From Aureliella sp. (lineage in GTDB: Bacteria; Planctomycetota; Planctomycetia; Pirellulales; Pirellulaceae), in the NCBI GenBank assembly GCA_046290675.1, contig JBKAHA010000019.1, positions 18,742-82,741 on the forward strand: a DNA stretch of 64,000 nt, given 5' to 3'. The translations under genes and the position numbers were made by a program. Of the stretch, positions 16,323 through 64,000 are shown in pieces. Each line of letters begins with the position of its first letter. Within the stretch, counting starts at the first letter, position 1. The notes under the pieces were generated by a model. The model did no database searches. It was not told the origin of the DNA and saw only the letters and a list, made by a program, of their open reading frames with translations.

Positions 16323-16408
16323 GCGGATGTGGCGGAATTGGCAGACGCGCTAGGTTCAGGTCCTAGTGTCCCTTACCGGACGTGGAGGTTCAAATCCTCT
16401 CATCCGCA
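16323..16408 (+). tRNA. tRNA-Leu(CAG)
   Basis: Acceptor GCGGATG/CATCCGC, anticodon arm CTAGG-TTCAGGT-CCTAG, long variable arm GTCC..GGAC, T loop GGTTCAAATCC. CCA not encoded. Confidence 0.95.
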
Positions 16409-16480
16409 CTGGTTTTTCTTGGGTCAAACGCACCTTCGAAATTTTCAACTTCCCCAACTCGACACCCAGAATTGCATTTT

Positions 16481-16498
16481 GGGGACAAAACGGGGACA
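16481..16498. promoter_or_regulatory. Putative integrase arm-type binding sites (tandem GGGGACA)
   Basis: GGGGACA at 16481 and 16492, 11-bp period, between the tRNA and the integrase. Function is inferred. Confidence 0.5.
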
Positions 16499-16563
16499 GC
16501 ACTTAGTTCACATTGGTTTTGAATCGCTGGTTCTTTCCGTAGCCCTTACGGAAAATGTGATTC

Positions 16564-17775
16564 ATGGCATCTCTCGAACTAAGAAACGGCACCTACCGAA
16601 TTGTCTTCCGCTACGGTGGCCAGAAGTTCGCTCGCTCGCTAAAGACTTCGCTGCAGAGCGAAGCCAATCTGGCTCTGGCACGCCTAGAGGACAACCTCCG
16701 CCGAGCAGAAAATGGCTCGCTGCCTATTAAGCCCGGAGCAGACATCCCCACCGTGATGCTCACCTCTGGAGCATTCAGTCAGCGGGTTCAGGTCGACAAA
16801 ACTCCCCTGCTCGGTGAACTCCTGGATCGTTACATCGCCAGCATTCCTCAGGCAGCCATCGAGAAGTCAACTTGGAGGATGCTGCACATTCATGTACGAC
16901 ACCTGAAACGGCATCTGGGAGTCCGTATGCAGCCAGGGAAAATGTCGCTCAACCACCTCCAAGCCTACGTGAATGCTAGAGGCAACGAGCCAGGTTTGCG
17001 AGGGAAGACCGTTGGCCCGACGACCATCAAAAAGGAACTCTCTACGCTCAACGCAGTCTGGAACTGGGCCATTGAGTCGAAGATCCTGGTAAATCCCCTG
17101 CCCAAGAAATCCCGACTGCGATTCTCAAAGCAAGACGAGAAGCCACCGTTTAAGACCTGGAGCGAGATTGAACGAATTGTTGAGCGAGGGGCTCTCTCGG
17201 AGCTCGAAGCCCAGGATTATTGGGACTGCGTGTATCTCGACCAGCCACAGATTGAGGAGTTCCTGAAAGATGTGGCCGCCAAGCGACTCCCCTCTTTCCT
17301 CTACCCGATGCTTGCTACCGCGGCTTACACCGGTGCACGGCGTAGCGAGTTGTTACGCTCGCAGATTGAGGATATCGACCTTGAGTCCGGCCAGATGGTC
17401 ATTCGCGAAAAAAAACGCACTCGAGGCCAGCGTTCCACTCGGGCAGTGCCAATCTCACCAAAGCTCAATGACATCTTGGTGAAGTGGATGGATACTCGCC
17501 CTGCCGGAAGATATACCTTTACGATAGATGGGACGCAGTTGTCCTTTGACCAAGGCAGCTGCTACTTCCAGACAGCCGTGTCAAAGACGAAATGGGATGT
17601 GCTTCGCGGCTGGCACGTTCTAAGGCACAGCTTTATCAGTAGCTGTGCCTCCCACGGCGTTGACCAGAGAATGATTGACGACTGGGTTGGCCACCAAACC
17701 GACGCCATGCGCCGCCGCTATCGGCATCTGTTCCCCAATAAGCAGCGGCAAGCTTTGGCGGAAGTCTTTGCTTGA
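16564..17775 (+). CDS. int: Tyrosine recombinase / site-specific integrase
   Basis: Catalytic set TGARRSEL (R), WHVLRHSF (HxxR), WVGH, RRYRH (Y); N-terminal arm-binding-like domain; adjacent to a tRNA. Confidence 0.93.
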   Translation: MASLELRNGTYRIVFRYGGQKFARSLKTSLQSEANLALARLEDNLRRAENGSLPIKPGADIPTVMLTSGAFSQRVQVDKTPLLGELLDRYIASIPQAAIEKSTWRMLHIHVRHLKRHLGVRMQPGKMSLNHLQAYVNARGNEPGLRGKTVGPTTIKKELSTLNAVWNWAIESKILVNPLPKKSRLRFSKQDEKPPFKTWSEIERIVERGALSELEAQDYWDCVYLDQPQIEEFLKDVAAKRLPSFLYPMLATAAYTGARRSELLRSQIEDIDLESGQMVIREKKRTRGQRSTRAVPISPKLNDILVKWMDTRPAGRYTFTIDGTQLSFDQGSCYFQTAVSKTKWDVLRGWHVLRHSFISSCASHGVDQRMIDDWVGHQTDAMRRRYRHLFPNKQRQALAEVFA

Positions 17776-17788
17776 TTCGATTAGCTTG

Positions 17789-18058
17789 CTAGTACGGCAG
17801 CAAGCCTTCGTTGCGGATGCGTTCCAATTCAGTGCTTGAGATCATCCACTCCTTGCTTGAGCCGCGTCCACAGGCACGTTTCTCAGCCCAGACGCGGCCA
17901 AGTCGACACCATTCGCGAACAGTGAATTCAGCTTTGCCGAGTAGCTTTGCCACTTCCGCTGTCGAGTAATAGTCCTTTACCTGCTTCTGCTCAATTAGCG
18001 ATTCAAGCAAAGACTCGATTCGCTCCAGTCTTTCCTGCAATGCATTGTCTACTGCCAT
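17789..18058 (-). CDS. Excisionase-like HTH protein (MerR/Xis type)
   Basis: YYSTAEVAKLLGKAEFTVREWCRLGRV HTH; convergent with the integrase; GGAGG upstream. Confidence 0.8.
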   Translation of the reverse strand: MAVDNALQERLERIESLLESLIEQKQVKDYYSTAEVAKLLGKAEFTVREWCRLGRVWAEKRACGRGSSKEWMISSTELERIRNEGLLPY

Positions 18059-18314
18059 ATTCAGCCTTCCTCCGCGGCGATGGATTCCCGGTTGTCTTTC
18101 TCAGGGGCAGTAGCATACGACAGAAGGTGTGAACTTGGATGCAATTGGCACACACAGTGGCACCCCAACGCTCGAGAATAGCCCCATAAACGCCACAAAT
18201 TACTGCGCAAATAGAGATTTCCTCCCCTGACACGTTGAGCACCCGCGAACTGTACAGGAACCGACTACTTTGCCTTCTTACGGCATTGGATGGGTTGTTC
18301 CCTAAGAAAGGATG

Positions 18315-18372
18315 CTTTACTAGTGGCCTTGGCTAGTAAAGTATGCTTTACTAGTGACTTGAGCTAGTAAAG
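18315..18372. promoter_or_regulatory. Two tandem palindromic operators CTTTACTAG-N9-CTAGTAAAG upstream of fic
   Basis: Perfect 9-bp arms at 18315-18341 and 18346-18372, 31-bp period; extra half site GCTTTAC at 18376. Confidence 0.7.
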
Positions 18373-18387
18373 GGAGCTTTACCTGAA

Positions 18388-19557
18388 ATGACACGCACTA
18401 CAGGCAAATTCAAAGTCTCCAACACTTCCGGAGAGCAGGTCCGGGCCTTTGTTCCCTATCCGTTGCCGCCCAAACGTCCAGTGCTGCAACTCGAAGCCCA
18501 GCATCAAGAATTGCTCCTCCAAGCAGAAGCCAGCATTCAACAACTTGGCACCGCAGCAAAAATGGTGCCCAGTGCTGATTGGTTTATCTACGGTTTTGTT
18601 CGAAAGGAGGCAGTGGTTTCTTCTCAAATCGAAGGCACCCAGGCAACACTGCAAGACGTACTGAACTTTGAAGCGACTCAAGAAGCAGAGCGTCCAGACG
18701 ACGTTGAGGAGATTTGTAACTACGTCGATGCGCTTGCCTACGCACGAGATCAAGTCGCCAAGCCACGAGGACTGCCGATTTCCACACGCCTACTTTGCGA
18801 AACTCACAAGCGATTAATGGCTGGCGTGCGCGGTGCAGAGATGCAACCAGGCAAAGTACGCAAGTCCCAGAATTGGGTCGGAGGAACGCGTCCTGGTAAC
18901 GCCAACTTTGTTCCCCCACCAGCAGATGAGGTTCCCAAAGCTCTGGCGGATTTGGAGCAATGGATTCATGGAACGCATACCTTGCCGCCACTGGTGCGTA
19001 TTGCGCTTGCGCATGTGCAGTTTGAGACTATCCACCCTTTCTTAGATGGAAACGGTCGAATTGGGCGCCTTCTCGTTACGCTACTTCTTGAACATTGGCA
19101 GCTGTTGGATGCTCCACTGCTTTACATCAGTCTTGCCCTCAAATCGCGGCAGCAGGAGTACTATGACAGACTCTCTGCGGTTCGACACGATGGTGACTGG
19201 GAATCCTGGCTCTTGTTCTTCTTTGAATGCGTTATCGATGCGGCCCGAAATGGAACACAGGCAGCAGAAAGAATGTTTCAGCTCATTCATACGGACAGGC
19301 GGCGTCTACTAGATAGCTCTGATGCAACACTGCACTCCATCCGCCTATTCGAGTCACTACCACAGCACCCGATAATCACGACCCAGATGGTGGTCGACTT
19401 GCTGGCAACTACCAAGCCAACCGCAGCAAAGGCAATAGAGGCGCTTGAAAAGACCGGTGTGATTTCAGAGACATCGGGAAAAAAACGCGATCGTGTATAC
19501 GCCTATACTGAGTACCTAAGCGTTCTAGGAGCCGGAACAGATTTGCAAACTCGTTAG
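18388..19557 (+). CDS. fic: Fic family protein (class II-like, C-terminal winged HTH)
   Basis: Canonical HPFLDGNGRIGR; N-terminal inhibitory SSQIEG; C-terminal TKPTAAKAIEALEKTGVI wHTH. Confidence 0.92.
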   Translation: MTRTTGKFKVSNTSGEQVRAFVPYPLPPKRPVLQLEAQHQELLLQAEASIQQLGTAAKMVPSADWFIYGFVRKEAVVSSQIEGTQATLQDVLNFEATQEAERPDDVEEICNYVDALAYARDQVAKPRGLPISTRLLCETHKRLMAGVRGAEMQPGKVRKSQNWVGGTRPGNANFVPPPADEVPKALADLEQWIHGTHTLPPLVRIALAHVQFETIHPFLDGNGRIGRLLVTLLLEHWQLLDAPLLYISLALKSRQQEYYDRLSAVRHDGDWESWLLFFFECVIDAARNGTQAAERMFQLIHTDRRRLLDSSDATLHSIRLFESLPQHPIITTQMVVDLLATTKPTAAKAIEALEKTGVISETSGKKRDRVYAYTEYLSVLGAGTDLQTR

Positions 19558-20201: not shown

Positions 20202-20453
20202 CTAGTCTTTTGCTTCGCCCGCCTCTTCCGAGTTGGAGCCCTGCACGTAGATCCATGTGTGAGCCAGGTCGGCAACCTTCACAACGTTGGGCAAGTCGTC
20301 CCGCCAAAACTGAGTCGATTCCTTCCACACATCACCGTTGCGATAGAGCCGACACACAGTCACCTTGTATCGATCCCCATTACGCGTGTTGTTTTTCCAA
20401 ATCCGAGCCAGGATCAAGCCAAAGCGGATTTGGTGAACTGGTTGCTTATTCAC
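20202..20453 (-). CDS. Small protein, putative ssDNA-binding (paralog 1 of 3)
   Basis: Probable GTG start at 20453 after GAGGAGG, overlapping the upstream stop. PVHQIRFG..IWKN..F.RDDLP..AH.WI is shared with 33104 and 22473. Confidence 0.6.
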   Translation of the reverse strand: MNKQPVHQIRFGLILARIWKNNTRNGDRYKVTVCRLYRNGDVWKESTQFWRDDLPNVVKVADLAHTWIYVQGSNSEEAGEAKD

Positions 20454-46582: not shown

Positions 46583-49500
46583 ATGAAACCTGTTGATGTC
46601 AGGCACCATCTCCAGCAAGCAATACAGCTCGACCTCGTGGGGCCAACTGAGACGTTGGGGGATCTTCGGGAGACCCTCAATCAAATGCCGTCACGGTGGT
46701 ATCTCACCGGCTTTTTGGTGCCGACTGAAGCAGATGAGGCCCAACGTGTCGATCCAACGAGCAACGATGAGCTTGACCAGGCGGCTGAACCAGCTGGCCT
46801 CGATGACGATAGTACTCCAGAACCTGTAGCGGCCAGAAGATCCTATCTTCCCAGCAGCATGGGACTCAGCGTCTTGGTCCCTAAGAATGCCACAGAGTTA
46901 AATATATCAGTTGATTACGGAGAGTACCTCCTTCAAGAACAAGATGAAGGATACTCCGGCCCAGACCTATGGAAGCGTGTGCCGCACAGACAAGAGTTCA
47001 AACTTGATTTTGGTAGTTCAGCTCCAAATCGAGGGAGGCTTCCGGTTCCCAACAGCAGAGGGCTAGAGATTGACTGGTCCATTCGCGAAGTACCCGACTC
47101 GGGTATCGAAGGTGGTTTACCCTCGGGAACTCGAAGTCTTTCGGTATTCATCGTCAATCATCGAACTCCTGCTGGCGATAAACACGCCGACGAAGCATCA
47201 GTGTTTCAGGTGCAGCTTGAGCTAAAATGCAACCAAGGATTCGTCGCGAGGCCGAACCTTCGGAGCCTCGAGAGCGACGACTGGGACGAATGCGTTGCAG
47301 ACCTCCAGTATCAAGACTCGTTCGAGTTTTCTGTCGGGCATGGCGTATCCACGGAAGCTGATACAGAGGGCAACGTCTGTAATGTAGTGCGAACTTGCTG
47401 GCTTCCTAGTGCAGAAGTCGAGAAAGTCGCCCCCGCGCCAATTCCCGATGTTGAATTGCGTATGGAGGAGTTGGCCGGTCTCAAAGACGGGAAAGCCGCA
47501 CAAGAAAAGCTCGGCAACTTTGTTGAATGCTACAAGTCTTGGATCAAGAAACAGATAGACAATGTCCCTTCGTCACCTGCTAAACGAAGAGAAACTGGAG
47601 AAGTTCTCTTGCATAACGCCTCGAGGGCGGCAAAACGAATACAGGAAGGAATTGATTTACTTTCGACGCCTGACTGCTTAGACGCTTTCCGATTAGCCAA
47701 CCGAGCGATGGCAGATCAAGGGCGACGAAGACTCGCACTGCAACTCAATAAGCCAGCCGCTGAAATCGTTCCTGCTTGGCGCCCGTTCCAGTTAGCATTT
47801 CTTCTGATGAATTTAAAGGGAATTGCTGAGCCTGAAGGCGATGATCGCCAGGTAGTGGACCTCCTATTCTTTCCAACAGGTGGTGGTAAGACCGAAGCCT
47901 ACCTTGGTTTGGCAGCTTTTACTCTGGTGCTGCGACGACTTCGAAACCCCGGTATCGCATCGGCAGGTTTGAGCGTGTTGATGCGTTATACGTTGCGGCT
48001 ACTGACACTCGACCAGCTCGGTCGTGCCGCTGCCTTGATATGTGCTCTCGAGCTTCTTCGTCAAAGCGACGTTGATAAGCTCGGCGAGTGGCCATTTGAA
48101 ATCGGCTTATGGGTTGGCCGAGCCGCAACGCCAAATCGCATGGGACGGAAAGGCGAATCGGATGGCGAATCTGCTCGGCGAAAAACAATCGCGTTCCAGA
48201 ATGACAGCAAGAATAAACCCTCGCCTATTCCGCTAGAAGAATGTCCTTGGTGTGGAGAGAAGTTTCGGGCTACATCCTTTAAGTTAACACCCAATACAGA
48301 CAACCCAACTGATCTCCGTGTCACCTGTGCTAACCGAGACTGCGACTTCTCGAGAGGTAATGACTTACCCATTCTTGCTGTTGATGAGCCAATCTATCGA
48401 CGGCTACCTTGCTTCTTGATTGCCACTGTCGATAAATTTGCGGCCATGCCTTGGACCGGTGAAGTTGGCGGCTTCTTCGGTCGGGTCGACCGCTATGACG
48501 CTGATGGTTTTTATGGGCCTTGCGAGAAGAACGTTGGTCGTCCCCTACCTGAGCCACGACTGAATCCACCGGACTTGGTGATTCAAGACGAATTGCACCT
48601 GATATCGGGACCACTGGGCACAATGGTCGGCCTGTATGAGACCGCCTTGGACGAATTGTCGACTGTTATGCGAGATAACAAAGAGATACGTCCAAAGATC
48701 ATTGCTTCCACGGCTACGGTTCGCCGTGCAGAAAGTCAGATTCGGGCACTATTCAACCGACGTCTGGTTGACGTATTCCCTCCCCCAGGCCCTGATCGTC
48801 GAGATTCATTCTTCGCTGAAACTCATAGCACCGAACGAAGCAACGCTCGGCAGTATCTGGGTATCGCGGCCCAAGGGCGCTCGCCAAAAGTCATTATGCT
48901 GCGAGTCTACTTGGCTCTCTTGGCTGCAGCCCAACGCGTTTATGTTGAAAACGGTGGTAAGAAAAACAAAAGTAATCCAGCTGACCCGTATATGACGCTG
49001 CTCGGCTATTTCAACAGTTTACGAGAACTTGGTGGTGCAAGAAGGCTGATTGAAGACGAAGTTCGCACGCAGCTTATTTCTCGGGGTGCTCGAAAAAGAG
49101 TTGGTGAAGACAAAGGTGTCTTTCGCGACCGAAAGATAACGTATGAACCTGTTGAACTGACCAGCCGAGTCTCAACGGACAAAGTGTCTGAGGCTAAGCG
49201 ACTCCTCGAGCAAGCGTTCTTTGAAAAGGACCACGTCGATGTGGCTATCGCCACCAATATGATTTCTGTCGGTCTCGACATCACGCGACTTGGCCTGATG
49301 GTTTGCTTCGGCCAACCCAAGACCAGTGCCGAATACATTCAGGCAACGAGCCGTGTTGGACGAGATGACAAGCGGCCTGGGTTAGTGGTGACAATCCTAA
49401 ATATTCATCGGCCAAGAGACCGGTCACACTACGAACGTTTCGCTGCCTTCCACGAGACCTTCTATCGCTCTGTTGAGGCCACAAGCGTCACGCCATTCTC

Positions 49501-49975
49501 ACCTCGCGCCTTGGACCGTGGACTTGCCGGCACACTTGTCGCTTTGGTTCGCCAAGGGCATCTACCTATGACGCAACCACGCGGGGCAACTGAGATTCTC
49601 AACGAAATGCCGCGATTAGACACATTCGTCGAGCAGATTTCGGATCGTGCCCTGGAGACACACTATGACAGTTCATCTGCTGAAGCGGAACACCTTAAGA
49701 ACGTTGTGCGAGAGCGTGCTATCGATTTGCTCGACAACTGGAATACGATTGCAAAGGAATTGCATGACAATGGTGGCGCACTACAGTATCAGGCTGAAAT
49801 CGGGGGTGCCCAAAGACTACTCTACGAGTTCCTCAATCCAGAGCTAAAGGAACTGCCCGCTCGGCATAAAAAGTTCCGTGCCAATCGTTCGATGCGAGAC
49901 GTCGAGCCAAGCGTCAATCTCTGGCTTAAGACAATTGACGGTGTTGAGCTTGACCCTGAGGAGGAGGACGCGTGA
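46583..49975 (+). CDS. drmA: DISARM helicase DrmA
   Basis: FFPTGGGKTEAY, IQDELHLI, ATNMISVGLDI, YIQATSRVGR. Confidence 0.9.
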   Translation: MKPVDVRHHLQQAIQLDLVGPTETLGDLRETLNQMPSRWYLTGFLVPTEADEAQRVDPTSNDELDQAAEPAGLDDDSTPEPVAARRSYLPSSMGLSVLVPKNATELNISVDYGEYLLQEQDEGYSGPDLWKRVPHRQEFKLDFGSSAPNRGRLPVPNSRGLEIDWSIREVPDSGIEGGLPSGTRSLSVFIVNHRTPAGDKHADEASVFQVQLELKCNQGFVARPNLRSLESDDWDECVADLQYQDSFEFSVGHGVSTEADTEGNVCNVVRTCWLPSAEVEKVAPAPIPDVELRMEELAGLKDGKAAQEKLGNFVECYKSWIKKQIDNVPSSPAKRRETGEVLLHNASRAAKRIQEGIDLLSTPDCLDAFRLANRAMADQGRRRLALQLNKPAAEIVPAWRPFQLAFLLMNLKGIAEPEGDDRQVVDLLFFPTGGGKTEAYLGLAAFTLVLRRLRNPGIASAGLSVLMRYTLRLLTLDQLGRAAALICALELLRQSDVDKLGEWPFEIGLWVGRAATPNRMGRKGESDGESARRKTIAFQNDSKNKPSPIPLEECPWCGEKFRATSFKLTPNTDNPTDLRVTCANRDCDFSRGNDLPILAVDEPIYRRLPCFLIATVDKFAAMPWTGEVGGFFGRVDRYDADGFYGPCEKNVGRPLPEPRLNPPDLVIQDELHLISGPLGTMVGLYETALDELSTVMRDNKEIRPKIIASTATVRRAESQIRALFNRRLVDVFPPPGPDRRDSFFAETHSTERSNARQYLGIAAQGRSPKVIMLRVYLALLAAAQRVYVENGGKKNKSNPADPYMTLLGYFNSLRELGGARRLIEDEVRTQLISRGARKRVGEDKGVFRDRKITYEPVELTSRVSTDKVSEAKRLLEQAFFEKDHVDVAIATNMISVGLDITRLGLMVCFGQPKTSAEYIQATSRVGRDDKRPGLVVTILNIHRPRDRSHYERFAAFHETFYRSVEATSVTPFSPRALDRGLAGTLVALVRQGHLPMTQPRGATEILNEMPRLDTFVEQISDRALETHYDSSSAEAEHLKNVVRERAIDLLDNWNTIAKELHDNGGALQYQAEIGGAQRLLYEFLNPELKELPARHKKFRANRSMRDVEPSVNLWLKTIDGVELDPEEEDA

Positions 49976-51795
49976 ACAAGCGACGTGGAAAAAAAGCTCA
50001 CGGTCAAATTCGACAGAGTCAATTGATCACCTCATTTGGACCTGGTGCGATGATGGACTTGCCAAATCATTCGGTGCTGATTGGAGGTCTCGATTCCTGG
50101 TCATCAGGAGGAGATGAAGTTCTCGAGCCGCGGCTCATCGATAAACTCAAGTCTCTGTTTGACCCGCCACTTAGCAGCCTTAAGCTGGTTTCCCCTCCGC
50201 CGGACCCCGATGATTCTACGGCTCCACAGACGGGTATAACTGCATGGCAGTTCCCGGAGTGGTTCATCATTCAGGACGTCGATACTGACGAGAGCAGCGG
50301 CACCAGACGTGCCAGAATGCTAGTTCACCGTTCGCGATTGAACAAAGGCAAGTTCATTGATGACAATCGCAAGAAGCGCAATGTAGTGCCCGTTCGCTTT
50401 GTCAGAGCGTGCAAGAGTGGTCACATTGGTGACATCGACTGGTATGCTTTTCTTCACGGTCCAGAGTCCAACTGTCGCCGGCAGCTCTGGATCGAGGAAC
50501 GCGGAACCAGCGGCGACCTCGCCGAGGTATTTGTCCGCTGTGAATGTGGAAATGCTGAGCGAAGTATGGCTCAGGCAGCAGATTCTCGCGAACGCTCACT
50601 CGGGCACTGCGACGGCAGCCGACCATGGCTTGGTCCCTATTCAAAAGAAAAGTGCGGTGACATCAATCGACTCTTGATTCGAACTGCCAGTAACGCTTAC
50701 TTCCCACAATTAATGAGCGTAATCTCACTTCCAGACCGCAACGAAGATCTCCGGGATGCGGTGGAATCTGTCTGGGACTTCGTCGAAATTGCCGAGAGCG
50801 AAGCGGACATCGCCAAGGAGCGAAAGAAATCAAAAGTCCACAAGGCGCTAGATGGCTTTACCGACAGCGAAGTCTTTGAGGAAATCAAGGTTCGCCGAGG
50901 CCAAAAGTTTGACCAACAAAAATCGGTAAAACAAGCCGAAATGGAAACGCTGATTGCGAGCAAGGACACCATGGGGGAAGACAAGCCCGATGGTAACTTT
51001 TTTGCGCGAACATTACCTGCCGACCAATGGAGTTCCTATCCTTGGATGTCCGACGTCGAGAGAGTCGTGTTGGTGCACCGACTCCGGGAAGTCGTCGCCC
51101 AAGTTGGCTTCACTCGATTCGAGGCCATCTCTCCAGATATTGACGGAGAGCTCGAGATTGGTGTCAGGAGAGCAACTCTTGCCAGAGAGATCACTTGGCT
51201 ACCAGCCATTGAGAATCGCGGCGAGGGGGTCTTTATTCAGCTCAAGAAGGAAGCTGTAGAGAACTGGCTCGAGAAACCTGATGTTCAGGCTCGAGGGCAG
51301 CAACTGCTCAGTGGGTATGAGACTTGGGCTTCGGAGCACAGTGAAAGCCGCAGGGCATTCCCAGGCCTTCCCTATTTAATGCTTCATTCACTATCACACC
51401 TGCTTATTACCTCGGTGTCACTCGAATGTGGTTACCCAGCAAGCTCGATTCGAGAACGCATCTACTCGATTCCGAGTGTTGGCTATGGAGTACTTCTCTT
51501 CACCGGAAGTAGCGATGCTGAAGGAACGCTTGGCGGTCTAATTCAGGTTGGTCGCAAGATCCATGAGCACCTGCGAAATGCTCTCGAGCTAGGCTTACTT
51601 TGCTCGAATGACCCTGTGTGTGCCCAACACCAACCGACAAACGCACACGAGAGACGCTTCCTTCACGGAGCTGCGTGTCATGGTTGTGTACTGATTTCCG
51701 AGACTTCTTGCGAACAGCACAATGAGTATCTGGACCGTGCGCTAGTTGTGAGCACCGTAGACAACCTCGGCACGGAATTCTTCAAGCTCGGCTGA
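49972..51795 (+). CDS. drmB: DISARM DUF1998 protein DrmB
   Basis: IRQSQLITSFGPGA, HSLSHLLI, CSNDPVC..ACHGC..SC four-Cys cluster; GTGA overlap with drmA. Confidence 0.9.
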   Translation: MNKRRGKKAHGQIRQSQLITSFGPGAMMDLPNHSVLIGGLDSWSSGGDEVLEPRLIDKLKSLFDPPLSSLKLVSPPPDPDDSTAPQTGITAWQFPEWFIIQDVDTDESSGTRRARMLVHRSRLNKGKFIDDNRKKRNVVPVRFVRACKSGHIGDIDWYAFLHGPESNCRRQLWIEERGTSGDLAEVFVRCECGNAERSMAQAADSRERSLGHCDGSRPWLGPYSKEKCGDINRLLIRTASNAYFPQLMSVISLPDRNEDLRDAVESVWDFVEIAESEADIAKERKKSKVHKALDGFTDSEVFEEIKVRRGQKFDQQKSVKQAEMETLIASKDTMGEDKPDGNFFARTLPADQWSSYPWMSDVERVVLVHRLREVVAQVGFTRFEAISPDIDGELEIGVRRATLAREITWLPAIENRGEGVFIQLKKEAVENWLEKPDVQARGQQLLSGYETWASEHSESRRAFPGLPYLMLHSLSHLLITSVSLECGYPASSIRERIYSIPSVGYGVLLFTGSSDAEGTLGGLIQVGRKIHEHLRNALELGLLCSNDPVCAQHQPTNAHERRFLHGAACHGCVLISETSCEQHNEYLDRALVVSTVDNLGTEFFKLG

Positions 51796-51797
51796 CC

Positions 51798-52589
51798 ATG
51801 ACCAACCCTCTTGCGCAACTTAGTGATCACGATCTCCAGACTCTGATCGACGCCCTGGCTAGCGAACGAATTGTAGGGCCATATTCAGAGTTGCTTGTCA
51901 GTCGATTCTTGTCCTCTGCTGTAGCTTCGAACGTATCGAAGGCCTTGAAGGAATATGCCTCGCTGGGGTTCACTACTAAGCAGATTTCTGCGACGCTTGA
52001 ACTCCTTCGAGAAGACCGACGTGGTAGAGAGGAGAAACGAACTCCGATCGATCTAGTTGTATCTGGACCAGAGGCCGCCGGAGCAGCCAATCGCGACACT
52101 GCTGTCGTAGTGAATGAGCTGTTCAAGCACGCACAAGAGTCAGTATTAGTCGTTGGCTATGCGGTCTATCAGGGCCAAAAGGTGTTTCAATCGCTGGCAG
52201 ATCGAATGGAACAGATGCCAAATCTCACCGTGCGGTTCTTCTTAGATGTTGCTCGGAGCAATTCAGACGATTCGAAGCAAGACATCGTCGTTTCCCGGTT
52301 CGTGCGGCGATTTAAGGACAAACAATGGCCTAAAGGGCGTCGGCTGCCCGAAGTTTATTACGACCCACGCTCTTCAGCCAACGATACGACAGTCCGATCG
52401 TCGCTACACGCGAAGTGTGTTGTGGTTGACGGTATTCAGGTATTCGTCTCCTCTGCAAACTTCACCGAAGCCGGACAGGAACGCAATATTGAAATTGGAC
52501 TGAAGATCCAATCGGAATGGCTCGGTGGCAGAATCATTCGTCATTTCGAACTTCTTCGCGATCAAGAGTTGGTCTCAAGAGCAATCTGA
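51798..52589 (+). CDS. drmC: DISARM phospholipase D-like nuclease DrmC
   Basis: LHAKCVVVD (HxKxxxxD) and SSANFT..RNIEIG. Confidence 0.88.
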   Translation: MTNPLAQLSDHDLQTLIDALASERIVGPYSELLVSRFLSSAVASNVSKALKEYASLGFTTKQISATLELLREDRRGREEKRTPIDLVVSGPEAAGAANRDTAVVVNELFKHAQESVLVVGYAVYQGQKVFQSLADRMEQMPNLTVRFFLDVARSNSDDSKQDIVVSRFVRRFKDKQWPKGRRLPEVYYDPRSSANDTTVRSSLHAKCVVVDGIQVFVSSANFTEAGQERNIEIGLKIQSEWLGGRIIRHFELLRDQELVSRAI

Positions 52590-53383: not shown

Positions 53384-54031
53384 TTAGGCAAACGGTCGAA
53401 CGATCTTGCGGCGTAGCGGAAGCACCTCGGTTGGAAGTTGAGATTTCCCTGCGGTTTTCCGTACGCGATTGACCTCGCGAAGCATGATGAGCATTTGCCT
53501 GCGAACTGGTGCATATGCGGCAATCGGCAAGTTGTAGAAGGCTAGTGCGAGCTTCTTGGGAGAGTCCCGAAGTGCTCGCTCAGAAAACCAAGCTCGCAGC
53601 TCAAGATACTGCTGGCGGTCGATGGCCACATGCGAATGCCATTTGTCATCACGACTACCATCCTTCTTGCGTCCACCTCGCCGGTAACTGATTGAGTAAC
53701 CGGCGTAACGAATCGGCACTCGTCGGATGTCGCGAATAAGGTTGGACTCCTCCTGGAAGAATTTGTGCTCACCTTTAGTAGCAAGAATCACAAACGTTGA
53801 TTCATGACGAATGTATTGCAGATTCGCCCTACCCGCCTTCTTGCGTCTTGCCCGAGTTGATTCAGACACGGCTATGCCGTACTTTTCAATCAACTTGGCA
53901 TCAATTGCCTCAGGATCTTTGCCCGCCGGTATTCTCCCAAGCACATAGAACCAGTATCCATGCCGCAAGTAAGAGCACGCTAGCTGCTGGACAAAGCCTT
54001 CAACCGAAGTTGCTACAGCTCGATATCCCAT
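53384..54031 (-). CDS. Basic hypothetical protein, probably DNA-binding
   Basis: Probable ATG 54031. R/K-rich, YLRHGYWFYV..GKDP..IDAKL..RARRKKAGRANLQY; function unknown. Confidence 0.6.
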   Translation of the reverse strand: MGYRAVATSVEGFVQQLACSYLRHGYWFYVLGRIPAGKDPEAIDAKLIEKYGIAVSESTRARRKKAGRANLQYIRHESTFVILATKGEHKFFQEESNLIRDIRRVPIRYAGYSISYRRGGRKKDGSRDDKWHSHVAIDRQQYLELRAWFSERALRDSPKKLALAFYNLPIAAYAPVRRQMLIMLREVNRVRKTAGKSQLPTEVLPLRRKIVRPFA

Positions 54032-55643
54032 CCCATTCAAAGAACAAAATCGGAAGCTTGTTCTTTGGCACAAGCTTCCAGTAAAGCCATAAACGCTCAG
54101 CACTCAGTAACGGGTGCCAGAGAGCTACAGCAGTTTGGCGGTGGGCAGCACTCAAGTGCCCAAGCCAAACTACATTCATGAATTGAGCCTCGCCAATTCA
54201 TAGAGCCCTTCAAGCAAAGAACCTATCGACAGCAACGCTGGAGTCCACACGCACTCCGAGCCCCTGCCGCAGATTCGCCGCCACAACAGACCAGTGCTCC
54301 CACACCAGCCTGTTGTAACCGCTTGCGCCCGTCCAAGGACGGCCAGCCACATCCATGCAGCCAACCGCACAGAACACCAACAGCTTTGCATTGCCCGTCA
54401 GCCCTTTCGTCGAGATACGTGTTGCTCAGCACCACCTGTTGCAACATCAACGACACTTCCACTGCCCTGCAGAAGCATCGCTTAGGGCCAAATCCAAACT
54501 CCCGCCTGGACTGGCACCTAACTCCTAATCAGGCCACACTCCCACTCTACGGCGTTTCAATCACCCGGATGACTCACTTCCAGGCACCGGTAACCAGCCG
54601 GCTGCCGCAGAGCTTCCTGCGTTAGTCATTCTCTCCACCTTGCGATTCACGTCGCTATCCCGCGCGCACGGGAGGAACGTTGGCCGTGCATTCAGTTCGC
54701 CAGAACCGAAGCAGTTTGCACCGCAGGCAGCGCCTGCGACGATTTCAGGGGACCGAACGTAGAAGCATCCCCTTACCCATCGACCAAGGTCTTTCACTGC
54801 TTGGCATCGTCTGCCGCAAGGTTTACCGGCAAGCCCATTAAGGCCTTTCATGGTTGAGCTATTCGTGGCCGCGGGATTTGCCCGCAGTCCCCGGAGCAAG
54901 CCAGCTCCGGTTCGTGCTGTTGCCAGCATCGAAACTCCCCACGCCGGACAAGTTGTATGAGGAACGTGCCCCCCTACCCCTTGTACAGGATTACGTAGTG
55001 TCATTGTAAAACACCCCTCACCTGCTTTGAGTAATGACGGCCCGACTAAATTCCTACCAAGAAAGTCAGTCGGGTATTTCCGCATCGCCCTCGCCCAAGG
55101 ACTAGCCTTGAGACGGTTCTCTCAACTCACCATCGGATCGAATCGTCGGATTACTCGAGTTCAGACTTGCAGGCTCACAAACAAAGTGAGCGGCGAGTCA
55201 TAGTCGGATTACTCGACGAAGCCTCCGTCGAACCGGACAAGCACCTCTCGATGCATCCGGCTCTACGGGCCAGCTACGTAGCAGGTGGTTAACTCCTGCT
55301 CCCTTAGGCCAAGTGGTGAGCCTGGCTTTACCGGGTGTAGCTGTCTGTTCATGCCTGTCATGCCCATCACCACTTGCAGAACTGAATTTGCAGACTGCTT
55401 GCAGCAACGCGTTTGACGTAATCAACAGCTGCGACAGAAGGGATCCGATCCCAAAGCCGCTAAAGACGCCAATTAGCATTCTGAGCCGGGAGCGCAACCC
55501 CTGAAACGCTGCTAATCCAGTGACTTGCGCGGTTCATCGAGCCGCACTGACTGCTACTATGCATTGGCCGAGAATTGGCAACAGTCGAAGTGACGCTGAA
55601 TTTTTTGTGAGCATTCGGAACGTGCCGAGTAGGGGACATGGCC

Positions 55644-55910
55644 TGTGGATAACTCGCACTGAATAGGTGTCGCAACTGTCGCAGTTTTCGGGCCAAAAGG
55701 CGTGTCGGAGGTGTCGCAATCCACAGGCAAAGACGTGTCGGAGGTGTCGCACTTTTTTGTCAGCAGACGAATGAGATGACAACATAACATGCTGAAAGAA
55801 CGACAGGATTTTGCGCTCGGGGAAGGGGGAGGAGAGCTGTACCCAAAGTACTTGTACAAGAGTACCTGTACAGACAAAGGTACTTGCTTTTAGGATTTCT
55901 TATTTTTGTT
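55644..55910. other. Candidate plasmid-type replication origin (oriV)
   Basis: Perfect DnaA box TGTGGATAA at 55644; iteron-like 18-mers at 55666, 55701 and 55734; GTAC cluster 55839-55883; T-rich tract after it; located downstream of rep. Confidence 0.65.
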
Positions 55911-57676: not shown

Positions 57677-57695
57677 GAATTGCCATTGGCAACTT
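57677..57695. repeat. parS candidate copy 1 (GAATTGCCATTGGCAACTT)
   Basis: Core palindrome TTGCCA-T-TGGCAA. Confidence 0.6.
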
Positions 57696-58408: not shown

Positions 58409-58427
58409 GAATTGCCATTGGCAATTC
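58409..58427. repeat. parS candidate copy 2 (perfect palindrome GAATTGCCATTGGCAATTC)
   Basis: 9-bp arms with a 1-bp centre. Confidence 0.65.
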
Positions 58428-58724
58428 CATCTCAGGCTCCCTTGTAGCCCTTTTTCTTGGAGCCGAGCGAGTTCATCACGACCCTGATGGCCCTTGCCAT
58501 TCATGTTGGCGCGAGGCACGCTCCTGACGGGCTGCATGACGTAAGCTCCTTTTACGAAAGCGGCCAAGTGCTGGGATGTCCGCTGCAACGGCTCCCAGTG
58601 CGTTTACTTCTTCCAAAAACTGCGACGCAAACGACACGTACATAGAACCAGCCTTGCAGATTCTCCTTGACGACCTTTGCATCGATGTGCCAGCGTATCG
58701 AAAGTGATTACAGCAACTTACGCA

Positions 58725-58754
58725 GAATTGCCATTGGCAATTGCCAAGTTGCAA
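58725..58754. repeat. parS candidate copy 3 in the parA promoter
   Basis: GAATTGCCATTGGCAATTG plus an overlapping degenerate TTGCCAAGTTGCAA, about 20-30 bp before the parA ATG. Confidence 0.6.
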
Positions 58755-60503: not shown

Positions 60504-60540
60504 TTGCTCAACATTGCCAAATCGTGGTAATGTTAGAGCA
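60504..60540 (+). promoter_or_regulatory. Putative leaderless promoter overlapped by a palindromic operator
   Basis: TTGCTC-N18-TAATGT with TG extension; the predicted +1 coincides with the ATG at 60540; inverted repeat AACATTGCCA/TGGTAATGTT. Confidence 0.45.
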
Positions 60541-60908
60541 TGAGAATCTACCATGAAATGGTAAAGCAGGAGTGTGAGCGACGCGGAATTTCAATGCAGG
60601 AGCTGTTGCGTGCAGCTGGTGTCAGTTCCAACGCGTATTACTCTTTGGTCAGCAAAGAATCGGCTCTACCTAAAAGTGTTCAAAAGATCGCCCAAGCCTT
60701 GGATATTGCCCCCAGCATGCTGCTACACGACGAAAAGCTTGTCCTGCAAAAACACATACGCTTGCTCGAGCGAGTAAATGAAATCGCGGAGAAGCATCCG
60801 GATGCGGACAGAGATACCATTCGGCATACTCTCACTCTGCTTCGTGAACCACCCATAGACCGGCTACGGAGAGCCTTGGAACTTGGCCGAATCGGACTTT
60901 CTAACTGA
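60540..60908 (+). CDS. XRE-type HTH protein, putative antitoxin
   Basis: ISMQELLRAAGVSSNAYY..KIAQALDI HTH; C-terminal EPPIDRLRRA; overlaps the NTase gene. Confidence 0.7.
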   Translation: MRIYHEMVKQECERRGISMQELLRAAGVSSNAYYSLVSKESALPKSVQKIAQALDIAPSMLLHDEKLVLQKHIRLLERVNEIAEKHPDADRDTIRHTLTLLREPPIDRLRRALELGRIGLSN

Positions 60909-61383
60909 ATCAGGTGCAATTGGATTTCTTGCCGAACTAGTGCGAGCCGAGGTTCGCTTCATGGTGGTAGGAGCGTCAGCGGCGGTGCTTCAAGGCGTTC
61001 CGCTTGTCACACAGGATATCGATCTTTGGTTTGCAGAGCTTCCCGATCCAAAACTCCGCACAGTACTTTCGAAAGTTGGTGGTATCTATGTTCCATCAGT
61101 TGCACACAATCCACCAACTTTTGCCGGGGATGCGGTAAAGCTTTTCGATATCGTGGTGACCTGCCAGGGGCTTGAAAGCTTCGATGAAGAGTATGTAGAG
61201 GCTCTAGCCGTTGATCTTGGGCCAATTTCCGTGCCGGTCCTGCCACTTGAGCGGGTGATTCACAGCAAGCGTGCTGCTGGTCGTCAAAAGGATACCGCCG
61301 CGCTCCCTGCCCTCGAGACGGCAAGCAAGACCATATACGAAGAGCGAAAGCCAAAGCTCTGGTCTGAGATTAAACGCAAATAG
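60883..61383 (+). CDS. Nucleotidyltransferase (DUF6036/AbiEii-like), putative toxin
   Basis: VVGASAA..TQDID Pol-beta motif; SKRAAGRQKD C-terminal motif. Confidence 0.75.
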   Translation: MAESDFLTESGAIGFLAELVRAEVRFMVVGASAAVLQGVPLVTQDIDLWFAELPDPKLRTVLSKVGGIYVPSVAHNPPTFAGDAVKLFDIVVTCQGLESFDEEYVEALAVDLGPISVPVLPLERVIHSKRAAGRQKDTAALPALETASKTIYEERKPKLWSEIKRK

Positions 61384-61444
61384 CTTGCAGTTTATTTGCA
61401 GATAGAACTTTACTGTTTGCAGCAAAACGTGGTACCTCAACGGT

Positions 61445-61669
61445 ATGCTTAGAGAATTTCACGGAACCATAAATGCCTCAGGCCTATGTTCGCTCGGACA
61501 GACAGTGCCGACGACGCAGCTATGTGCCAATGCCTTGCCCATCTGGGCTGTTCTGGATGATTGCGCAGCCACGCGGGTTATACGTGAGCTGGTCGCAGGC
61601 AACCGTGTTCGGGCACTTCGCCTGCTTGAGGAATTTGCATACTCCCTGGGGAGCGAACCAAACAAGTGA
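61445..61669 (+). CDS. Small hypothetical protein
   Basis: 74-aa ORF co-oriented with the XRE/NTase pair. Confidence 0.4.
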   Translation: MLREFHGTINASGLCSLGQTVPTTQLCANALPIWAVLDDCAATRVIRELVAGNRVRALRLLEEFAYSLGSEPNK

Positions 61670-61673
61670 TTGG

Positions 61674-62357
61674 CTAAGCCAAACTCCTTTCATCGGTCAG
61701 CGTGTACTGCCGAGAATCCTCAAGCTCGATAAATGGCGAGTGATAGGACAAGAGCAATAGTGATTCTTCCCCTGTTCGAAACGTGTGCCGAAGCCCGCGA
61801 GCAAAGATCAATACATCGCCTCTCGACACCTCAATGACTTTCGTTTCTTCGGCATCGCAGATAACAAATTCTGCCTTTCCATCTGCAACGAAGATCACCC
61901 GATCGCTGTAGTCATGCGAGTGAATCGGAAGGTCACGAGTGCCTGGTTCAAATCGTAGCTTCAGCAACGCATCATCTGCATCTGATTCGAAGTACTCGCT
62001 CGCTCGCCACACACCGCCGGAAATTGAGGCAACACCTTCAAACGGCGAGCTCAATTCAAGCTGGTAGTCCTTTACTAGCTCTTCGAGGTCGTCAGTATTT
62101 ATCCCACCAGGGCTGAGGGCATTCGTCCTCCCGACTAGGCACGTACATACTGCCAGTCGCTTTGCTCGAATCTCTGCTTGTAGGTAGCTAGCAAGCCTTC
62201 TGCACTCCTCCATTACTCGAGCCAAAGCGGCATTCCAATAGCCAGTCTTTTGTTGATGTGTCAGAATTTGGAAGCGGTTGGATGTAAGCATGACTTTGCT
62301 CTTTGTGTAACGACGAAACTTTTGGCAGGGAGATGGATCCAACTCGAGCACCATCAA
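61674..62357 (-). CDS. Cupin domain protein
   Basis: PIHSHDYSDRVIFV..G and DVLIFARGLRHTF cupin motifs; true start probably downstream of 62357. Confidence 0.7.
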   Translation of the reverse strand: MMVLELDPSPCQKFRRYTKSKVMLTSNRFQILTHQQKTGYWNAALARVMEECRRLASYLQAEIRAKRLAVCTCLVGRTNALSPGGINTDDLEELVKDYQLELSSPFEGVASISGGVWRASEYFESDADDALLKLRFEPGTRDLPIHSHDYSDRVIFVADGKAEFVICDAEETKVIEVSRGDVLIFARGLRHTFRTGEESLLLLSYHSPFIELEDSRQYTLTDERSLA

Positions 62358-62956
62358 CGTCCGAGCAGCTCGGTGCCCATCAAAAAGTGCAGGTGCTGCT
62401 GCAAGAGTACAACTGTTTGCATCAGCTGTTGCTGTTTCGGCTTAACGCTCTTGACCGTCGCCTTCCAACAGCTTCTGGACTTTTATCGGTTGGCTTGGTT
62501 TCAGCAACGGCTCTGCCACTGAGAGCACAAACAGTTGTTCTTGTTTGCATGCCTCTGGCTTTGCTTTGGCTGACTCGAACGACCGTGCAGCACGCAAAAG
62601 CAAAGGAAGACAATCTTCGACGCATCGATGAAATCGAGCGGTTGGTCAACGCTGTCGCCGGTCAAGAACTGATGATGTTTCAGTCACGGCACCCAAACCT
62701 CGGAGCAACACCGGCTGGCCGAAGCGGCAACGCAACTGTTGCAGCCACCACATTTGGAAGCCTGGTTCTTGTCATACTCTGTATTGCGATGTTCGAGCAG
62801 AACGTGGGTCTTTCGATTGAACTGTATTTTGCCTACGCGGCTTTGTGTTTAGTCGGAATTGCGACAGCCCCGCTGGGACTGGCCAGGTATCGCTATCTAA
62901 AGCGGCCGCCAGAGATCTTGTCACCGCGGCAGTTTCGCTGGAGATCACACTCATAG
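62333..62956 (+). CDS. Multi-TM membrane protein of unknown function
   Basis: Probable ATG 62333; about four hydrophobic segments; N-terminal LLQEY helix. Confidence 0.55.
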   Translation: MDPTRAPSTSEQLGAHQKVQVLLQEYNCLHQLLLFRLNALDRRLPTASGLLSVGLVSATALPLRAQTVVLVCMPLALLWLTRTTVQHAKAKEDNLRRIDEIERLVNAVAGQELMMFQSRHPNLGATPAGRSGNATVAATTFGSLVLVILCIAMFEQNVGLSIELYFAYAALCLVGIATAPLGLARYRYLKRPPEILSPRQFRWRSHS

Positions 62957-62996
62957 TGTGTAGCCATTATTGCTACTTATAAGTGTGATGTACAGC

Positions 62997-63209
62997 ATGA
63001 AGCACAAAGATATTCGAATCGTAGTTGGCGAGAGAATCAGGGCTCTGCGCGAGGAGCACGGCTGGTCCCAGGAAGAGCTGGGTTTCGAGAGTGGACTTCA
63101 CCGCAACTACATCGGGGGGATCGAACGTGGGGAGCGAAACATCGCCATTCTCAACCTGGCAAAACTCGCAGAAGCTCTGGGAGTAAAGCCCAGAGACCTA
63201 CTTCCCTAG
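62997..63209 (+). CDS. XRE-family HTH regulator (C-protein-like)
   Basis: GERIRALREEHGWSQEELG..GLHRNYIGGIERGERNI..LAKLAEAL. Confidence 0.88.
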   Translation: MKHKDIRIVVGERIRALREEHGWSQEELGFESGLHRNYIGGIERGERNIAILNLAKLAEALGVKPRDLLP

Positions 63210-63281
63210 GGTTTTCCTGCAGAGCTCGGGCATTTGTTCAGGGAGGCCGTTTTCAGCTAGGATCTAGCTAAGACCCAATCT

Positions 63282-63623
63282 ATGGAGGAGAAAATGGCAA
63301 CTGATGTGCTACAGCCTGGAGAGATCGTGGCAGTCTGCCCTCGGCAACGACCGATCGAAGAACGCAAGACCTCAGTACTTGTGAAGACACCAACGCTTCG
63401 AGTCATGCGGATCGAGCTTCCCGCTGGTGAGGAGCTGAAAGAGCATAAGGCACCGGGCGATATCACCGTGCACTGCATCGCTGGAAAAGTGAACTTCACT
63501 GTCCACGGCTCAACTCAGGAACTCTCTGCTGGAAGCCTACTCTATCTTGCAGCAGAAGAGCTTCATGCAGTAGAAGCCATTGAGCCATCCGCCCTGCTCG
63601 TCACCGTTGCGATCCAAGGCTAG
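63282..63623 (+). CDS. Cupin domain protein
   Basis: LPAGEELKEHKAPGDITVHCIAG..ELHAVEA; ATG may be at 63294. Confidence 0.8.
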   Translation: MEEKMATDVLQPGEIVAVCPRQRPIEERKTSVLVKTPTLRVMRIELPAGEELKEHKAPGDITVHCIAGKVNFTVHGSTQELSAGSLLYLAAEELHAVEAIEPSALLVTVAIQG

Positions 63624-63629
63624 GCTACC

Positions 63630-63854
63630 GTGATGTTGCAGGCTATCGCTGGCTACCACCAGGACGAAGAGCAACACTGGGTTGCACAGCTTGCCTGCGG
63701 CCACAATCAGCACGTGCGGCACAATCCGCCTTTGGTCACTCGAGAGTGGGTCTTGTCCAAAGATGGACGTGAATCGATGCTTGGCTTCAAGCTCGAATGC
63801 AAGAAGTGTGAAGACGGTTCACCGCCGGACGAGCGGCCCAATGAAACACACTAG
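63630..63854 (+). CDS. DUF3565 domain protein
   Basis: GYHQDEEQHWVAQLACGHNQHVRHNPP..LECKKC. Confidence 0.8.
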   Translation: MMLQAIAGYHQDEEQHWVAQLACGHNQHVRHNPPLVTREWVLSKDGRESMLGFKLECKKCEDGSPPDERPNETH

Positions 63855-63921
63855 CAAAACTCACAGCTAATCTATAGGTGCCAGTTGCGCGCGTCGTGAA
63901 AAGTTGAATAACCTCACAGTA

Positions 63922-63942
63922 GCTGTCCCCGTTTTGGGGACA
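63922..63942. repeat. Palindrome TGTCCCC-GTTTT-GGGGACA; 15-bp inverted match to the left-end motif
   Basis: 63922-63936 is the exact reverse complement of 16486-16500. Confidence 0.4.
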
Positions 63943-64000
63943 CGGCTGAGCCGATGGCATCATTTCTGCGGTCTCTCTATCGAACTAACCTAGTGGCAGA

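Follow-up and report, generated by a model that had tools for sequence, protein, structure and literature searches.

E1, a tRNA-Leu-integrated element of Aureliella sp. with a plasmid-like replicon and defence cargo

The stretch of DNA analysed here, called the window below, is 64,000 nucleotides (nt) long and comes from Aureliella sp. assembly GCA_046290675.1, contig JBKAHA010000019.1, positions 18,742 to 82,741 (G000:C19:18742-82741; the contig is C19 in what follows). It holds an integrated element inserted in a tRNA-Leu(CAG) gene, which we named E1. The host genome amounts to 7.70 Mb in 28 contigs with 54% guanine plus cytosine (GC) and lies within the Pirellulaceae, in agreement with an initial annotation, made from the letters alone, that had supposed a planctomycete-like host. 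Following the tRNA gene, E1 encodes a tyrosine integrase with an excisionase-like neighbour, the defence protein SoFic, an orphan methyltransferase, a transfer-like operon, a Lamassu system, a second tyrosine recombinase beside a lox/dif-like site, a DISARM system with a Kiwa system inside it, the conserved proteins o239 and o174, a candidate origin, the candidate initiator Rep, a ParA/ParB pair and an accessory right arm (Table 1). All of the backbone open reading frames (ORFs) are intact.

The 47-bp core of attL is composed of the last 32 nt of tRNA-Leu(CAG) and the next 15 nt. For the other end, the initial annotation had suggested looking for a direct repeat of the tRNA-Leu 3′ end, and such a repeat, exact over 47 bp, is found a short way beyond the window. 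Because attR occupies window-equivalent positions 64178-64224, E1 ends 224 bp past the window end, and its span from 16355/16378 to 64224 is 47.8 kb. The att repeat has two copies only in the whole genome, and no further copy was found inside the window with up to three mismatches allowed. C19 continues through both junctions into ordinary chromosomal genes: on the left flank an HtrA-like protease, on the right flank genes for VIT-family, Usp and P-type ATPase proteins. The GC fraction of E1 is 0.519 compared to 0.544 in the left flank, and that of the DISARM/Kiwa block is slightly lower. The boundaries and gene content of E1 are established, with all of its modules in one att-bounded unit. 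An int/xis pair at the tRNA gene, as the annotation had it, is present as well; the integrase match is clear, and the xis assignment is provisional because the score of the HTH_17 match barely exceeds its cut-off. The integrase has 41-46% identity to integrases adjoining rep-parAB at three related loci (L005, L078 and L080), and at L078 the integrase homologue comes after a tRNA-Pro gene. tRNA-Leu(CAG) is an integration hot spot in the genus, and other islands occupy the same tRNA-Leu in two relatives: in G015 (L093) an unrelated integrase adjoins tRNA-Leu(CAG), and in the closed genome G022 a partial 3′ copy of the tRNA-Leu lies 35.8 kb from the tRNA, without Rep (G022:C1:2230817-2266760).

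Table 1. Features of E1 and its ends, in window positions (aa, amino acids; HTH, helix-turn-helix).
Feature	Position	Strand	Basis or remark
tRNA-Leu(CAG), integration target	16323-16409	+	ARAGORN; intact after insertion
attL	16378-16424 (exact 47-bp core); 16355-16424 (70 bp with one mismatch)	+	exact-repeat extension
Tyrosine integrase, 403 aa	16564-17775	+	PF00589 (Phage_integrase), 70 bits
Excisionase-like HTH_17 protein, 89 aa	17789-18058	-	PF12728, 27.2 bits vs cut-off 27; adjoins int
SoFic (Fic/DOC AMPylase defence protein)	18388-19557	+	PADLOC SoFic, 377 bits; Pfam Fic_N, Fic
Orphan MT-A70-type DNA methyltransferase, backbone gene	20446-21588	-	Pfam MT-A70, 22.9 bits, below cut-off 23.9; PADLOC MTase_II
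Transfer-like four-gene operon	23371-29146	+	Pfam, NCBIfam, hydropathy
Polytopic VirD4/TraG/HerA-like ATPase, 1034 aa	24744-27848	+	TraG-D_C 30.5, TrwB_AAD_bind 28.1, DUF87 32.2 bits, all above cut-off
DUF932-like backbone protein, 339 aa	32046-33065	+	PHROG 1362, E 4e-17
Lamassu: LmuA (Cap4-nuclease type) and LmuB	33397-36365	+	PADLOC LmuA 247 bits, LmuB 654 bits
lox/dif-like site: 15-bp inverted arms (one mismatch) around AGGACA	36354-36389		overlaps lmuB stop codon
XerC/D-like tyrosine recombinase, 331 aa, candidate multimer resolvase	36484-37479	+	PF00589 79 bits plus SAM_1/SAM_4; NCBIfam XerD 111 bits, below cut-off
Class-1 DISARM: DrmD, DrmMI, DrmA, DrmB, DrmC	37565-52589	+	PADLOC 1095, 1311, 1008, 261, 267 bits
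Kiwa, between drmMI and drmA: KwaA; KwaB	45094-45612; 45615-46523		PADLOC 114, 194 bits
o239, conserved backbone protein, 215 aa from conserved start	53384-54031	-	palm/RRM-like fold
o174, conserved backbone protein	54561-55085	-	no family match
oriV (candidate): three phased iterons and perfect DnaA box TTATCCACA	55644-55751 (box 55644-55652)	-	sequence
Rep, candidate replication initiator, 422-428 aa	56279-57565	-	family without Pfam model
Three candidate parS/operator 17-bp palindromes	57678-57694; 58410-58426; 58726-58742		0.25 expected
parA, 271 aa	58773-59588	+	AAA_31 118 bits, CbiA (Pfam)
parB, 306 aa	59581-60501	+	ParB_N 75.5, HTH_ParB 62 bits; NCBIfam parB_part 131 bits
Accessory right arm: 122-aa HTH, 166-aa protein, two cupins, 217-aa membrane protein, C-protein-like HTH, DUF3565 protein	60540-63854		Pfam, PADLOC
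Right end of E1, running out of window	63855-64000	+	attR position (locus L001)
attR	64178-64224 (exact 47 bp; C19:82919-82965); 64155-64224 (70-bp form; C19:82896-82965)		

Searches of Rep against Pfam, NCBIfam, PHROG, PADLOC and the PDB sequences returned no match. None of 20 Rep family members matched the initiator family PF10134 (RPA) at E<=1, nor was there any match to it in the genome at E<=10, and an hhalign comparison of the Rep family with RPA proteins from planctomycete genomes gave an alignment that was colinear but weak (probability 19%). An AlphaFold model of Rep, built on 20 homologues (predicted local distance difference test, pLDDT, 67), had as its only significant PDB matches in Foldseek two chains of 5tbf, which holds RctB domains 2-3 (chain A: E 7e-6, probability 1.0, template modelling (TM) scores 0.29/0.41). 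We take these domains to be the tandem winged-helix core that RctB shares with the initiators of iteron plasmids.

The initial annotation had also read a DnaA box and iterons with Rep, and palindromic sites with ParA and ParB, and all of these hold up. In E1, six TGTCG(C/G) units make up three iterons (55661-55751) spaced 33-35 bp apart. Comparisons were made over a set of 80 loci with Rep homologues, taken from species-representative genomes plus a few from other sources (85 loci in the neighbour counts). A perfect TTATCCACA in rep orientation lies 3′ of rep in 25 of the 51 evaluable loci, against 0.75 expected over the 98 kb scanned; it sits 200-560 bp past rep in 23 of these and about 1.0-1.1 kb past it in the other two. 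All 21 copies inspected (19 of these loci, E1 and a sibling element, E2, found in the same genome and described below) have three direct repeats ahead of the box. The iterons have the consensus AAAgTGCGACgnnnCCGACACG at a spacing of about 33-36 bp; their sequence co-varies by element, and their number, spacing and orientation are constant. Upstream of rep, the Walker-type ParA and the HTH ParB, encoded together, form a type I partition pair. The palindromes read AATTGCCATTGGCAATT, i.e. AATTGCCA-T-TGGCAATT. All three fall in the interval separating rep from parA: rep has the first some 110 bp upstream, and parA has the last some 30 bp upstream. Their core, TTGCCA-N-TGGCAA, is found in the parA-rep spacer of 46/78 loci, where 0.04 would be expected, and 8 times in the remaining 1.14 Mb. 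The conservation of these cis sites is established and, judged by sequence, the iterons, DnaA box and palindromes are the marks of a putatively working iteron/DnaA-box origin and ParB centromere/operator. The cis-site evidence for a replicon is much stronger than the evidence from Rep itself. An inverted copy of the iteron motif (GTGTCG...GTCGCA) is also present at 58613-58640, about 130 bp upstream of parA, so Rep might also regulate the par operon.

Among 85 loci, rep has parA beside it in 78, parB in 72, o239 in 53 and o174 in 32. After rep and parAB, no backbone gene is more conserved than o239, which always lies just beyond oriV and o174; o174, in the loci carrying it, is found without exception in the interval from rep/oriV to o239. 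Searches gave o239 no family match, and neither an HUH nor a YxDD motif is conserved in it. Its AlphaFold2 model (pLDDT 88.7) has its best fold matches among palm domains, namely those of group II intron and retron reverse transcriptases, AbiA, GGDEF proteins and Thg1. An HUH identity was considered for o239 and rejected, as the second His of its 'HSH' is unconserved and the fold matches palms of the reverse transcriptase/GGDEF type and not HUH nucleases.

The resolvase with a core site that the initial annotation had listed corresponds to the XerC/D-like recombinase and the lox/dif-like site next to it. In E2 and at loci L029, L052 and L023, the recombinase homologues likewise have such a site about 100-130 bp upstream; across elements the spacer hardly changes, and the arms co-vary. 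The recombinase is 59-74% identical across elements (65% in E2), compared to 41-46% for the tRNA-side integrase. Tyrosine recombinases are known to resolve plasmid multimers, as Cre/loxP does in P1 and XerCD/cer elsewhere, and E1 resembles these systems in having a recombinase gene beside inverted arms with a 6-bp spacer on a ParABS replicon that is putatively low-copy. The sequence comparison with them extends to shared membership of the tyrosine-recombinase superfamily. From the position of the gene and the architecture of the site, the simplest reading is that it probably serves multimer resolution of the Cre/lox or Xer/cer kind.

That E1 belongs to a family is established. We collected 940 Rep homologues, nearly all from Planctomycetota-labelled sources, and in species-representative genomes at least 211 matched stretches encode a Rep relative. 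Distribution is patchy: of 49 genomes of the genus, 5 carry Rep, and an even sample of 401 genomes across the phylum yielded 3 with it. One member is E2, on contig C4 of the same genome (C4:483903-518321; L089-L091), a 34.4-kb element flanked by two copies, at C4:483903 and C4:518278, of a 44-bp sequence from the 3′ portion of tRNA-Arg(ACG). Its integrase is 25% identical to that of E1, and its gene order is that of E1: SoFic, methylase, a pair of winged helix-turn-helix (wHTH) proteins, TraG-like ATPase, coiled-coil protein, recombinase, cargo, o239, o174, rep, parA, parB and att. E2 carries three copies of a parS variant, AATTGCAA-A-TTGCAATT, and its iterons also differ from those of E1. Since the two co-resident elements differ in both iterons and parS, selection against incompatibility is suggested; judged by sequence, such divergence would be required of two functional replicons sharing a cell if they are to stay compatible. 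The presence of diverged E1 and E2 in one genome offers a natural test of replicon and centromere incompatibility.

Further members show the same modules in other settings. In a Phycisphaerales genome, 45-bp repeats of tRNA-Leu(CAA) enclose a 37.3-kb unit that holds parBA, rep, transfer genes, recombinase and o239, the modules of E1 in another order within one att-bounded unit. In Stieleria mannarensis (L078), tRNA-Pro(CGG), an E1-type integrase, parB, parA and rep all lie within 5 kb, with 1.7 kb between int and parB. Elements of Stieleria marina and S. magnilauensis adjoin tRNA-Asp and tRNA-Pro, and no att repeats were found for them within 60 kb. The closest sequenced relative with long flanks is L005 (3126-9488 of a 238-kb ENA scaffold), whose Rep is 79% identical and whose integrase is on the parB/cupin side of the backbone, not the SoFic side; the order of modules relative to att therefore varies among family members. 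On the 33.8-kb contig G044:C80 (L023), Rep has two homologues, 54% and 46% identical, and the tyrosine-recombinase model is matched five times; such elements may be arrayed there in tandem or nested in one another. The single-contig genome G201:C1 has four copies of PF10134 (RPA) initiators (L110, L120, L123). Since RPA plasmid initiators occur inside closed planctomycete chromosomes, other plasmid families may be integrated in this phylum too.

The initial annotation had named relaxase-like and coupling proteins, and of these the coupling-like ATPase stands, whereas the relaxase-like protein comes down to a borderline match of a 212-aa wHTH protein to Replic_Relax (26.4 bits; cut-off 25.3), for which NCBIfam and PHROG gave no support. 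The operon that encodes both also includes a 243-aa protein and a 433-aa membrane-anchored coiled-coil protein. With at least six predicted transmembrane segments, the ATPase would be an atypical coupling protein; its Walker A motif is at residue 568, and it scores 44 bits in similarity to SXT TraD. The operon is found within 10 kb of rep-parAB in 13-17 of 85 loci, and also in E2 and the Stieleria elements. Among VirB4-class ATPase models, PF03135 is absent from the genome and PF12846 has one sub-threshold match, outside E1. Because no MOB-family relaxase and no VirB4-class ATPase was found, E1 does not qualify as a self-transmissible integrative and conjugative element (ICE); it fits an integrative and mobilisable element (IME)-like or other mode of transfer. 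A similar picture is reported in a preprint on the planctomycete plasmidome, in which type IV coupling proteins were often detected with a relaxase in planctomycete chromosomes and no complete mating-pore system was found (10.1101/2024.01.22.576637).

For the cargo, at least five defence modules had been proposed, and PADLOC supports four: SoFic, Lamassu, DISARM and Kiwa. The Lamassu call is made on the SMC-like ATPase LmuB and the effector LmuA, with LmuC, which some types have, sought in the ORF list only. Assignment to class-1 DISARM follows from all five drm genes lying in one cluster, and Kiwa from the adjacency of KwaA, a membrane protein with three transmembrane segments predicted by hydropathy, and KwaB (DUF4868). 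A fifth system was sought among the pair of the HTH and 166-aa proteins, the cupins and the small ORFs, and these are without PADLOC support except for the C-protein-like HTH; the remaining defence candidates are the orphan MT-A70 methylase and that unsupported pair. SoFic has a 64% identical copy at the equivalent position in E2, and the methylase is also found in E2 and in the Stieleria elements. Beside the same backbone the cargo differs, with prokaryotic Argonaute and a type I restriction-modification system in Pirellula SH-Sr6A and copper ATPases in L005. E1 is, through variable cargo, a vehicle for defence systems, and it illustrates how these travel in Planctomycetota, with sister slots carrying other defence or metal-resistance genes.

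Among the remaining genes, the DUF932-like protein has 61-67% identical copies in L039 and L061, and small ORFs are present between the methylase and the transfer-like operon. The gene set of the right arm recurs in L005 between parB and int. Within this arm, the 79-aa HTH protein at 62970-63209 scores 80 bits against PADLOC 'control protein' models of restriction-modification systems; it lies among cupin genes, without an adjoining nuclease or methylase.

We think it likely that E1 is an integrative plasmid-like element, inserted in tRNA-Leu(CAG), that has an iteron-type theta replicon, is able to excise and persist as a circle, and serves as a defence vehicle. Excision, autonomous replication, the role of the resolvase and transfer are what we infer from its anatomy. 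The integrase and the HTH_17 excisionase would recombine attL with attR to give a 47.8-kb circle and a restored tRNA-Leu attB, and Rep bound to the iterons would fire oriV together with host DnaA. ParABS and the resolvase would then hold the low-copy circle in both daughter cells, and the circle could later reintegrate or pass on. Transfer, if any, would go via the operon of the TraG/VirD4-like membrane ATPase and would need a helper mating pore, as for an IME, or an unrecognised apparatus. Anatomy and strong comparative evidence, both drawn from sequence, support the integrative-plasmid reading.

Several observations weigh against this reading. No episomal form was seen: the assembly shows integrated junctions only, with no attP or attB contig, and in all the closed genomes examined (Pirellula sp. 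SH-Sr6A, Stieleria marina and S. magnilauensis) Rep is chromosomal. Terminal overlaps are lacking from five contigs of 33-69 kb with Rep, a small sample, and these are not circular. The initial annotation had proposed looking for free plasmid homologues of Rep and for empty sites in related genomes, and neither search was successful: none of the PLSDB plasmids (tblastn) or IMG/VR contigs, again small samples, carries this Rep, and no clean attB was found, a joined-flank query having matched the tRNA only in 40 relatives. The failure to find an empty attB is explained by the flanks of E1, which are unconserved at the DNA and synteny level; in five good genomes of the genus, the VIT-family gene of the right flank shows no synteny. 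To these points are added the moderate confidence of the Rep model and its modest TM scores to RctB, the lack of a sequence-level match to any curated initiator family, and the fact that no relaxase family, oriT or VirB4 was found. Contigs C27 and C28 were also considered as alternative junction contigs and proved to be unrelated repeats.

The chromosomal location of the closed-genome family members, their absence from PLSDB and the lack of circular contigs also favour the idea that E1 is an ICE or IME whose Rep-Par-resolvase set acts briefly, stabilising the excised form for a few generations around transfer (as in SXT/R391 and ICEBs1), with the chromosome as its sole long-term residence. Known ICEs do replicate and partition transiently (PMC4489591). 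However, those ICEs use rolling-circle replication from oriT via the relaxase, whereas E1 has a dedicated candidate initiator, iterons, a DnaA box, three parS and a putative resolvase, the full equipment of a stably maintained low-copy plasmid, and the divergence of iterons and parS between E1 and E2 suggests selection against incompatibility. We consider a purely transient role unlikely, though still worth weighing. That no excised form was seen, and no relaxase or mating pore found, could also mean that E1 is a fossil, a once-integrated plasmid now fixed as an immobile island with decaying plasmid genes. This is hard to reconcile with att sites identical over 47 bp, backbone ORFs that are all intact, cis sites conserved far above chance across dozens of species, two siblings at different tRNAs in one genome and a patchy distribution in the genus, and we find it very improbable.

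Two further alternatives concern the parts of E1. The second tyrosine recombinase with its own site mid-element (36354-37479) and the slightly lower GC of the DISARM/Kiwa block might point to a composite, in which an integrase-borne defence island and an integrated plasmid lie side by side, or to a misassembled plasmid contig. We regard this as scarcely credible: C19 reads through both junctions into chromosomal genes, E2 keeps the order from int to parB despite another integrase and tRNA, and the Phycisphaerales unit holds the same modules between its att repeats. The rep-parAB block is not a separate tandem element, as the initial annotation had allowed it might be, because there is no internal att copy and the linkage recurs in E2, the Phycisphaerales unit and the Stieleria loci, including the short int-parB distance of L078. 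The annotation had likewise allowed that Rep might not be an initiator. Rep without a sequence match to any Rep family could be a DNA-binding regulator or partition accessory, with the repeats and TTATCCACA as its operator and replication performed by another gene, such as o239, which matches Rep in degree of conservation, lies beyond oriV and has a polymerase-palm-like fold. Against this stand the resemblance of the Rep fold to RctB domains 2-3, the plasmid-typical divergent arrangement of rep and parAB, and a DnaA 9-mer identical to consensus at a fixed distance from three phased repeats at 25 loci; some database records also label Rep homologues 'Replication initiator protein A' (annotation only). 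A regulatory role in place of initiation seems improbable to us.

A bolder extension of the integrative-plasmid reading is that the rep-oriV-parABS-resolvase-TraG backbone represents an undescribed, phylum-wide class that alternates between chromosome and plasmid, with transfer independent of a type IV secretion system (through the TraG-like ATPase, the coiled-coil protein and the two wHTH proteins) and with o239 as a new priming or processing enzyme at oriV. We hold this to be speculative and doubtful. If true, Planctomycetota, among which conjugation has according to a 2024 preprint never been reported (10.1101/2024.01.22.576637), would gain their first description of a native system of DNA transfer and replication. 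Literature searches, some of them directed at planctomycete elements, turned up no description of this element family. Mobile elements of the phylum are poorly known, and the conserved, compact rep-oriV-parABS cassette is a candidate for a native shuttle or integrative vector.

Among known systems, the closest to E1 in layout (integrase, rep-parA-parB, traG and cargo) are the Tn4371-family ICEs of Ralstonia, Cupriavidus and other beta- and gamma-proteobacteria, which have an integrase at one end, a repA-parA-parB 'stabilisation' block, traG and variable cargo, and whose RepA has a role in replication that is proposed and not demonstrated (PMC2789088). In Tn4371 elements the Trb mating-pore set is full, RepA is of the pVS1 type and ParB is truncated, whereas E1 is without a detectable type IV secretion system, has a Rep with no Pfam model, a full-length ParB with three parS and a dedicated candidate resolvase, and comes from another phylum. 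AICEs, the integrative and conjugative elements of actinomycetes, are similar to E1 in their tRNA-integrating, self-replicating lifestyle, which for E1 is putative with respect to replication. AICEs are 9-24 kb in size and have a rolling-circle Rep, and their double-stranded DNA is moved by the FtsK-like TraB. E1, in contrast, is 48 kb and has an iteron/DnaA-box origin, ParABS and an ATPase of the VirD4/TraG/TraD and HerA families, and in Pfam and NCBIfam no E1 ORF matched FtsK_SpoIIIE or a rolling-circle replication Rep family. AICEs are described as using int/xis to integrate into tRNA genes, encoding their own replication protein, and having both integrated and plasmid forms (PMC2440964).

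Plasmids with integrating ability provide the other side of the comparison. The theta plasmid pPDL2 of Sphingobium fuliginis has a tyrosine integrase and, alongside ParA, an RPA/Rep_3-type RepA with iterons, an AT-rich stretch and a DnaA box; its attP corresponds to the 3′ end of a tRNA, and site-specific recombination of this attP with a plasmid-cloned tRNA-Ser attB was demonstrated experimentally (PMC3516476). pPDL2 was found free and is without ParB, whereas E1 and all of its placeable relatives are integrated and the Rep of E1 does not match PF10134. Planctomycete plasmids have a PF10134 RPA initiator by iterons, type I ParAB and often a tyrosine recombinase (10.1101/2024.01.22.576637). 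These share with E1 both phylum and replicon logic; E1 Rep differs in giving only the weak colinear match to the RPA profile and in its absence from PLSDB. Partition functions on an integrated element are also a trait of SXT/R391 and of ICEclc/PAPI-1. Replication of these elements is from oriT via the relaxase, and they are not known to carry an iteron origin or a dedicated theta initiator, whereas E1 has a candidate iteron origin and a theta-type initiator candidate. Such chromosomal elements are described as encoding partition of their circular form (PMC4489591, PMC6812849). E1 brings to the ICE-plasmid continuum a clear and widespread case of a tRNA-integrating element with a putatively complete theta replicon, beyond the relaxase-driven rolling-circle origin. 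It is an ICE/IME-plasmid hybrid belonging to a widespread family, in which a combination of known parts is seen in a new phylum with an uncurated initiator family.

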